Position numbers and translations under genes: made by a program. A DNA stretch of 32,000 nucleotides. Origin: Planctomycetales bacterium. GTDB taxonomy: Bacteria > 4484-113 > JAFGCY01. Shown piece after piece: positions 30,107-31,558 of this stretch. The notes under the pieces were generated by a model that saw only the letters and a program-made list of their open reading frames with translations, ran no database searches and was not told where the DNA came from. Positions within the stretch are counted from its first letter, which is position 1, and each line of letters starts with the position of its first letter. Location of the stretch: assembly GCA_022646745.1 (NCBI GenBank), contig CP060262.1, positions 3,600,001 through 3,632,000 on the forward strand, given 5' to 3'.

Positions 30107-31558
<1,452 letters not shown>

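Follow-up and report, generated by a model that had tools for sequence, protein, structure and literature searches.

An interrupted lyase gene beside the homogentisate cluster

The window, that is, the whole 32,000-nucleotide stretch of DNA analysed here, carries on its minus strand a gene for a tyrosine phenol-lyase (TPL)-like beta-eliminating lyase (30107..31549), which runs for 480 sense codons up to its closing TAG and whose sole interruption is an in-frame TGA at codon 62 (31364..31366, minus strand; TCA on the plus strand), where every relative has TGG (Trp). The initial annotation had described two collinear ORFs in one frame, and both the ORF list and the translation of 30107-31549 on the minus strand bear this out: the list gives pieces at 31364..31549 (61 aa) and 30107..31354 (415 aa), and the translation contains a single internal stop, at codon 62. 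The upstream piece consists of 61 sense codons ahead of the TGA (31367..31549, minus strand), encoding an N-terminal fragment (MPRCIPEPY...AMSDRQ) that carries the invariant TDSGT loop. The downstream piece, a 415-codon ORF on the same strand, begins at Met66, lacks residues 1-65 and is the probable product of a translational restart. No frameshifts, further stops or indels are found relative to the four closest relatives, all genes being 1443 nt long.

In a phmmer search against the PDB, the stop falls opposite the W of TPL structures 9J3U, 1C7G and 2EZ1, corresponding to Trp61 of the solved TPLs, and an alignment of the best 120 homologues has W in the codon-62 column in 120/120. Both results agree with the earlier claim that the TGA sits at a conserved Trp, and the Citrobacter TPL sequence quoted in its support proves accurate on alignment. 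Other elements invariant in the best 120 homologues are present here, namely TDSGT, Q61, M66, GDE, Y72 and the lysines of SxKKD. The catalytic tyrosine Y72, in DEAYAGS, equals Tyr71 of C. freundii TPL, and the PLP lysine K258, in SSKKD (K257/K258), matches Lys257 of Citrobacter TPL, each of the two being invariant in 120/120 of the best homologues. With K258 and Y72 in place and the gene free of indels and frameshifts, the description of an otherwise undamaged gene with intact PLP lysine and catalytic motifs also stands.

Across all PDB sequences, residues 6-457 align to TPL structures 9J3U, 1C7G, 2EZ1 and 1TPL (E=1e-153 to 1e-158), and FTTTR (Thr124), VRTMERG (Arg381) and LRFFQARF (Phe448/Phe449) align with TPL motifs. 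We take Thr124, Arg381 and Phe448/449 to be TPL-type substrate-pocket residues, the tryptophanase type presumably being marked by Asp137 and His463. By these motifs the substrate pocket is TPL-type rather than tryptophanase-type, and the putative activity is the conversion of tyrosine into phenol, pyruvate and ammonia. With W restored at codon 62, the protein scores 630.4 bits against NF009709 (tryptophanase/TPL subfamily), above the cut-off of 285, and 637.3 bits against TIGR02618 (TPL equivalog), below the cut-off of 720.7. Close UBP7 relatives have in common a tail of about 22 residues at the C-terminus (PHPDTTPAVEHEMHLSVPPKHYW; codons ~458-480, 30107-30175, minus strand), which is absent from classical TPLs and has very low AlphaFold confidence (pLDDT 35-50).

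The closest sister in a scan of GTDB species representatives, UBP7 HKST-UBA01 (L008), is 96.3% identical in nucleotide sequence over the gene and reads CAG TGG GGT, and TGG within an intact 480-codon gene is also found in AC1.30 (L009, 89%), UBP7 HKST-UBA03 (L010, 88%) and Ww346 (L011, 80%). The sister allele, too, is clonal, and TGG stands in four further contigs that carry it (L023-L026), one of them from another WANG18-1 sample. Checked for TGG or TGA at codon 62, the relatives (L008-L011, L023-L026) all read TGG, and none has a split gene. The window genome is not itself a GTDB representative; it is closely related to HKST-UBA01, the two lying at or close to species level. The sister allele (HKST-UBA01, L008 / P0122) has Ser at codon 411, where Pro is invariant in 120/120 of the best homologues; this P411S difference adjoins the conserved RR of the LxIPRRVYT motif.

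Gene calls give the order hppD-fahA-hmgA-hypothetical-TPL-dnaE in L006 (the same contig as L009), in L007 (the same contig as L011) and in the sister contig L023. The window runs hppD, a fumarylacetoacetase-family gene, hmgA, a 230-aa hypothetical gene and the TPL-like gene, with dnaE downstream; hppD through the hypothetical gene form a homogentisate (tyrosine-degradation) cluster beside the TPL-like gene.

The native ribosome-binding site, TGAGGTGCC (31553..31561, minus strand), is followed by ATC and then by the ATG (31547-31549), and its core, TGAGGTGC, is the same in the window and four relatives, with a ninth base that is C except in L011, which has T. Further upstream lies a 33-nt block, TGCAAAACGGTGATATCATATAGGTGATATCAG (31574..31606, minus strand), which is identical at every position (100%) in five genomes that share 80-96% identity in their coding DNA, and which contains two direct copies of GGTGATATCA (31589-31598 and 31575-31584) 14 nt apart. 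This block is probably a promoter/operator for some regulator, intact in the window. About 50 nt past the TAG, a consensus scan alone picks out a GC-rich hairpin resembling a terminator, with a T-rich tail after it (30036..30057, minus strand). The promoter/operator block, the ribosome-binding site and the terminator-like hairpin are all untouched in the window.

The neighbouring dnaE-like gene (25631..29908, minus strand, 1425 aa) contains in-frame, CCATGG-centred palindromic repeat modules at 25958-26138, 26774-26823 and 27188-27506, and the same modules occur in intergenic DNA flanking a GH114 gene (24170-24315 and 25406-25551), the copies being 78-94% identical. Within dnaE the modules translate to three hypervariable low-complexity inserts, placed at about residues 795-915, 1007-1085 and 1250-1320 by alignment with the 1294-aa dnaE orthologue of L007; the inserts differ between the two proteins, and the dnaE of L006 is called in three pieces. 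Palindromic elements inserted in frame into coding genes are known as RPEs in Rickettsia, and the dnaE modules would resemble an in-frame spread of REP-, RPE- or MITE-like elements into a polymerase gene. A Y-family polymerase gene with IMS domains (22739-24178, plus strand, 479 aa) is convergent with the dnaE-like gene, the GH114 gene lying between them.

Independent assemblies and the age of the stop codon

The exact 415-aa protein is found in five contigs from different samples, and one further contig has a variant. The five, ERZ27309083, ERZ27309061, ERZ28655279 (WANG18-1 SAMN08389169), ERZ28656053 (SAMN08389178) and Logan SRR12358675, show zero mismatches to the window over the 1443-nt gene, TGA included, and the flanks of the three anchored contigs (L001, L002, L005) are identical as well, in L001 across 5174 nt. 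The sixth contig, ERZ27309117, has the TGA and one SNP. In all six assemblies the 61-aa ORF is called separately upstream (as 62 residues at the contig end in the shortest), and the six represent at least three data sets and, by contig names, three assembly pipelines: MEGAHIT-style (k141), WANG18-1 scaffolds and Logan.

Sequencing error was one of the options raised in the initial annotation, and an artefact over a true TGG could be argued from the single-base difference, from its G-rich context (CAGTGGGG) and from the source, an assembly of an uncultured organism. Against it, the same base recurs in six contigs from different samples and from the MEGAHIT-style, WANG18-1 and Logan pipelines, and a sister lineage from the same project and the same pipeline was assembled as TGG in the identical context. 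We regard an artefact as extremely unlikely, and an error of sequencing or assembly can in effect be dismissed.

The names of the SPIRE-style WANG18-1 contigs suggest that they belong to PRJNA432264, a nine-year series of activated sludge from Shatin (Hong Kong), and the relatives, together with several matching contigs linked by name, appear to originate from the saline wastewater plant there. Three UBP7 genome bins were recovered in the Shatin study (PMC8495973). Several samples, probably belonging to a multi-year series, yielded the TGA lineage on assembly, so that it has persisted with no obvious sign of being purged. An exact-sequence look-up in a collection of 15 billion proteins did not return the W62 ancestral form of the exact protein, so that no TGG variant was found in the same strain background. 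In JGI metagenomes, a scan with a local 26-mer containing TGR gave no matches, and a scan with the 20-mer ATGAGTGACCGCCAGTGRGG returned a single distant TPL gene, with TGG, along with seven chance matches to unrelated sequence, and was uninformative.

The contig ERZ27309117 (L022) matches the window but for one SNP over 3.4 kb and then has 26 mismatches in about 320 nt, at contig positions 3404-3727, which correspond to about 29240-29563 of the window, at the start of dnaE. This stretch is either a recombination tract or a chimeric assembly between co-occurring UBP7 strains.

Of the options that had been listed, a recent TGG-to-TGA nonsense mutation is the one that the comparisons favour, TGG being found in every relative and omega being 0.02 against the closest sister. 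With codon 62 masked, the window gene and that of L008 differ by 49 synonymous and 4 missense changes (Nei-Gojobori), giving a dS of 0.167, a dN of 0.0036 and an omega of 0.022. When the changes are polarised with outgroups, the window branch carries 15 synonymous changes and one missense change in addition to the nonsense change, and the sister branch 11 synonymous and two missense changes. Neutral drift over a fraction f of the branch would be expected to add about 0.083 x 1109 x f, or about 92f, non-synonymous changes; at most two extra ones are seen, which places f below about 0.07. On these counts, either the stop would date from no more than the final few per cent of the interval since divergence from HKST-UBA01, or purifying selection would still be acting on the gene; an omega of 0.02 thus points to a very young stop unless the gene is still constrained.

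The lone polymorphism within the TGA lineage is a change from ATG to ACG at codon 382 (M382T) in contig ERZ27309117, and Met382, which sits in the MERG active-site motif, is invariant in 120/120 of the best homologues. M382T may hint faintly at the onset of decay, but it is a single event, and the sister allele, although intact, also departs from an invariant residue (P411S). A low omega is equally expected if the TGA gene is functional and selected, and one SNP in the lineage cannot separate the two cases.

Possible restart, read-through and recoding at codon 62

The G-to-A change that produced the stop (CAGTGGGGTGCCCTGATG to CAGTGAGGTGCCCTGATG) also turned GGGGTG into GAGGTG, 5 nt before the ATG of Met66, a consequence that the initial annotation had passed over, as it had the placement of the gene on the minus strand. 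The Shine-Dalgarno-like 9-mer made in this way, TGAGGTGCC (31358..31366, minus strand; ancestral TGGGGTGCC), is followed by CTG and then by the ATG, and it is the same as the gene's own ribosome-binding site (TGAGGTGCCATCATG), with the same spacing to the ATG. Met66 is in frame and invariant in the best 120 homologues, and in the window ftsW, murF, ftsL and nrdJ are preceded by Shine-Dalgarno sequences of the GAGG type. After termination, bacterial ribosomes begin anew at the first start codon with a Shine-Dalgarno sequence before it, within about 40 nt (PMC5972666). Because the new sequence copies the native site and spacing, and because ribosomes reinitiate over such distances, restart at Met66 is likely, and the N-terminally truncated 415-aa protein would be the likely major product.

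In an AlphaFold model of a 93%-identical orthologue (pLDDT 83, pTM 0.87), codon 62 lies inside a helix, residues 59-67, just before Tyr72, and residues 62-65, including the invariant Trp, are absent from both pieces. Since it would be without the TDSGT loop and the break lies inside the helix before Tyr72, the 415-aa fragment should be inactive; the model makes it unlikely to be active alone or as part of a two-piece enzyme. An arrangement of the latter kind, in which translationally coupled 61-aa and 415-aa pieces reassemble non-covalently into an active lyase, draws on the overlap of the stop with a new Shine-Dalgarno sequence that matches the native one exactly and lies 5 nt ahead of the Met66 ATG, which is in frame, on the intactness of both ORFs in all six assemblies, and on the efficiency with which bacterial ribosomes restart at such sites. 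Split enzymes are expected to break at a loop or domain boundary, to have complete pieces and to be conserved in relatives, whereas here the break is in helix 59-67 of the model, residues 62-65 are missing from both pieces and the gene is split in no relative. A functional two-piece lyase is for these reasons very unlikely.

A change of the genetic code (UGA = Trp, table 4) or selenocysteine insertion would account for a UGA exactly at a Trp position. The window, with a GC content of 62%, nevertheless uses TGA to end 12 of its 23 listed ORFs, dnaE, murD, murF, murE and ftsI among them (dcw cluster genes included), and its other genes are uninterrupted and give full-length Pfam matches: nuoB/C, ftsW, murD, mraY, murF, murE, ftsI, rsmH and mraZ, as well as nrdJ, a PKD protein, dinB, GH114 and dnaE. 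The seven other Trp codons of the TPL-like gene are all TGG. On stop-codon usage and intact neighbours, UGA as Trp under code 4 is rejected within the window. As for selenocysteine, the best 120 homologues have no Cys or Sec at this column, and no hairpin is found past the UGA: the 106 nt around and after the TGA contain no stimulatory RNA structure and fold less stably than shuffled controls (MFE -33.9 against a shuffle mean of -39.6 kcal/mol, z = +1.57). Rfam has no family near the TGA at E<=1, its one sub-threshold match lying about 50 nt past the gene end. The fold z-score and the lack of anything relevant in Rfam lead us to reject selenocysteine or a structured recoding signal as unsupported; a nearby suppressor tRNA was likewise considered and rejected, ARAGORN finding no tRNA genes within the window. 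A code change or selenocysteine insertion retains almost no probability. At a recoding site the stop would, moreover, be conserved among orthologues, and here TGG stands in L008-L011 and L023-L026 and W in 120/120 of the best homologues.

The remaining suggestion of the initial annotation, that UGA read-through ties expression to translational context, finds no positive evidence: the TGA is unique to one lineage, there is neither RNA structure nor Rfam match, and about half of the window's genes use TGA as their ordinary stop. Of the earlier interpretation, the recent nonsense mutation is therefore retained, and the sequencing error and the context-dependent read-through are not. Basal read-through is another matter. 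In an E. coli reporter, UGA is read by Trp-tRNA(Trp) at about 2% at 37 C and 4% at 25 C, the level being set by competition between tRNA(Trp) and RF2 (PMC10570021), and tRNA(Trp) variants with 4-bp anticodon stems raise UGA decoding in some bacteria (PMC13092985). By analogy, near-cognate reading by Trp-tRNA(Trp) is expected at any UGA and would regenerate the wild-type protein here; as such it would be a generic by-product of opal codons, and nothing indicates selection for it.

Such percent-level reading by Trp-tRNA(Trp) could also be imagined as a selected hypomorph, giving a tuned low amount of wild-type enzyme, for example to limit phenol production, with expression then tied to the competition between tRNA(Trp) and RF2. 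The restoration of the exact wild-type residue at about 2-4% in E. coli speaks for it, as do the absence of a second lesion with an omega of 0.022, the intact regulatory block, ribosome-binding site and terminator, the recurrence of the allele in six assemblies, and the existence of UGA-boosting tRNA(Trp) variants in some bacteria (PMC13092985). The TGA is confined, however, to one clonal lineage with TGG in every relative, no stimulatory RNA structure accompanies it, and high read-through would be costly with about half of the neighbouring genes ending in TGA; that the gene is intact is, besides, fully accounted for by how young the mutation is. A tuned hypomorph of this kind is in our judgement unlikely.

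A probably young opal allele and its known counterparts

The TGA is real, confined to one lineage and the gene's only lesion. Taken together, the evidence makes it probable that this TGG-to-TGA allele is very young and not programmed, an incipient pseudogene or else a strong hypomorph being the simplest description of it. A young pseudogene carries a disabling lesion that is a real base call and is absent from close orthologues, and this is what is found at codon 62. In the sequence of events that we favour, a spontaneous G-to-A transition would have struck the invariant Trp62 codon in one clonal lineage of an uncultured bacterium of the UBP7 phylum. Most ribosomes would now terminate after 61 residues, many of them probably restarting at Met66 by way of GAGGTG to give a 415-aa protein without residues 1-65, and a small fraction, at the percent level if E. 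coli is a guide, would read the UGA with Trp-tRNA(Trp) and make the wild-type enzyme.

A selected low-output state of the TPL-like enzyme, reached through read-through of UGA62 (with perhaps a strain-specific tRNA(Trp)/RF2 balance) or through reassembly of the 61-aa and 415-aa pieces, would make the level of a phenol-forming activity depend on the state of translation. We hold it to be decidedly unlikely: neither selected read-through nor a two-piece enzyme has positive support beyond an intactness that youth explains.

As a young nonsense allele, the split TPL-like gene of this UBP7 lineage represents a true strain-level loss of function or hypomorph and carries little weight beyond annotation, where gene callers should give one interrupted gene instead of a 61-aa ORF and a 415-aa "lyase". 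TGG-to-TGA is the mildest kind of nonsense change, because near-cognate read-through restores the wild-type residue, and the locus illustrates how one base change can make a stop and the ribosome-binding site for a downstream restart at once. With TGG and TGA sister lineages co-occurring in a nine-year wastewater series, the fate of a nonsense allele could be tracked in nature.

The event is another instance of a well-known kind, and its parts can be set beside known systems. The window gene aligns over residues 6-457 with the classical TPLs of Citrobacter freundii and Erwinia herbicola (EC 4.1.99.2; PF01212 Beta_elim_lyase) and keeps their PLP lysine, Tyr72, FTTTR, MERG and LRFF, but it scores under the TIGR02618 cut-off, adjoins homogentisate-pathway genes and, in the window strain, is broken by a TGA at the Trp61 equivalent; a TPL has an uninterrupted frame of about 456-480 aa, as do the intact 480-aa orthologues, whereas the frame here stops at codon 62. 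With organisms that have undergone table 4 reassignment (Mycoplasmatales, Ca. Zinderia, Ca. Hodgkinia and some Patescibacteriota; PMC13092985) it shares a UGA at a conserved Trp, yet it is not a member of that group, as it concerns a single codon in a single strain with 62% GC, where TGA is the commonest terminator. Closer are the leaky opal alleles read by wild-type tRNA(Trp), in which a UGA at a Trp codon likewise yields wild-type protein by near-cognate decoding; in contrast to these, folding revealed no context or structure here that would raise read-through. The arrangement also recalls termination-reinitiation (Adhin & van Duin 1990; Yamamoto et al. 2016, as reviewed in PMC5972666), with which it has in common a stop near a Shine-Dalgarno sequence and an in-frame AUG (TGAGGTGCCCTGATG); it differs from the known restarts in that the nonsense mutation itself completes the Shine-Dalgarno sequence from which the 415-aa product is presumably expressed.
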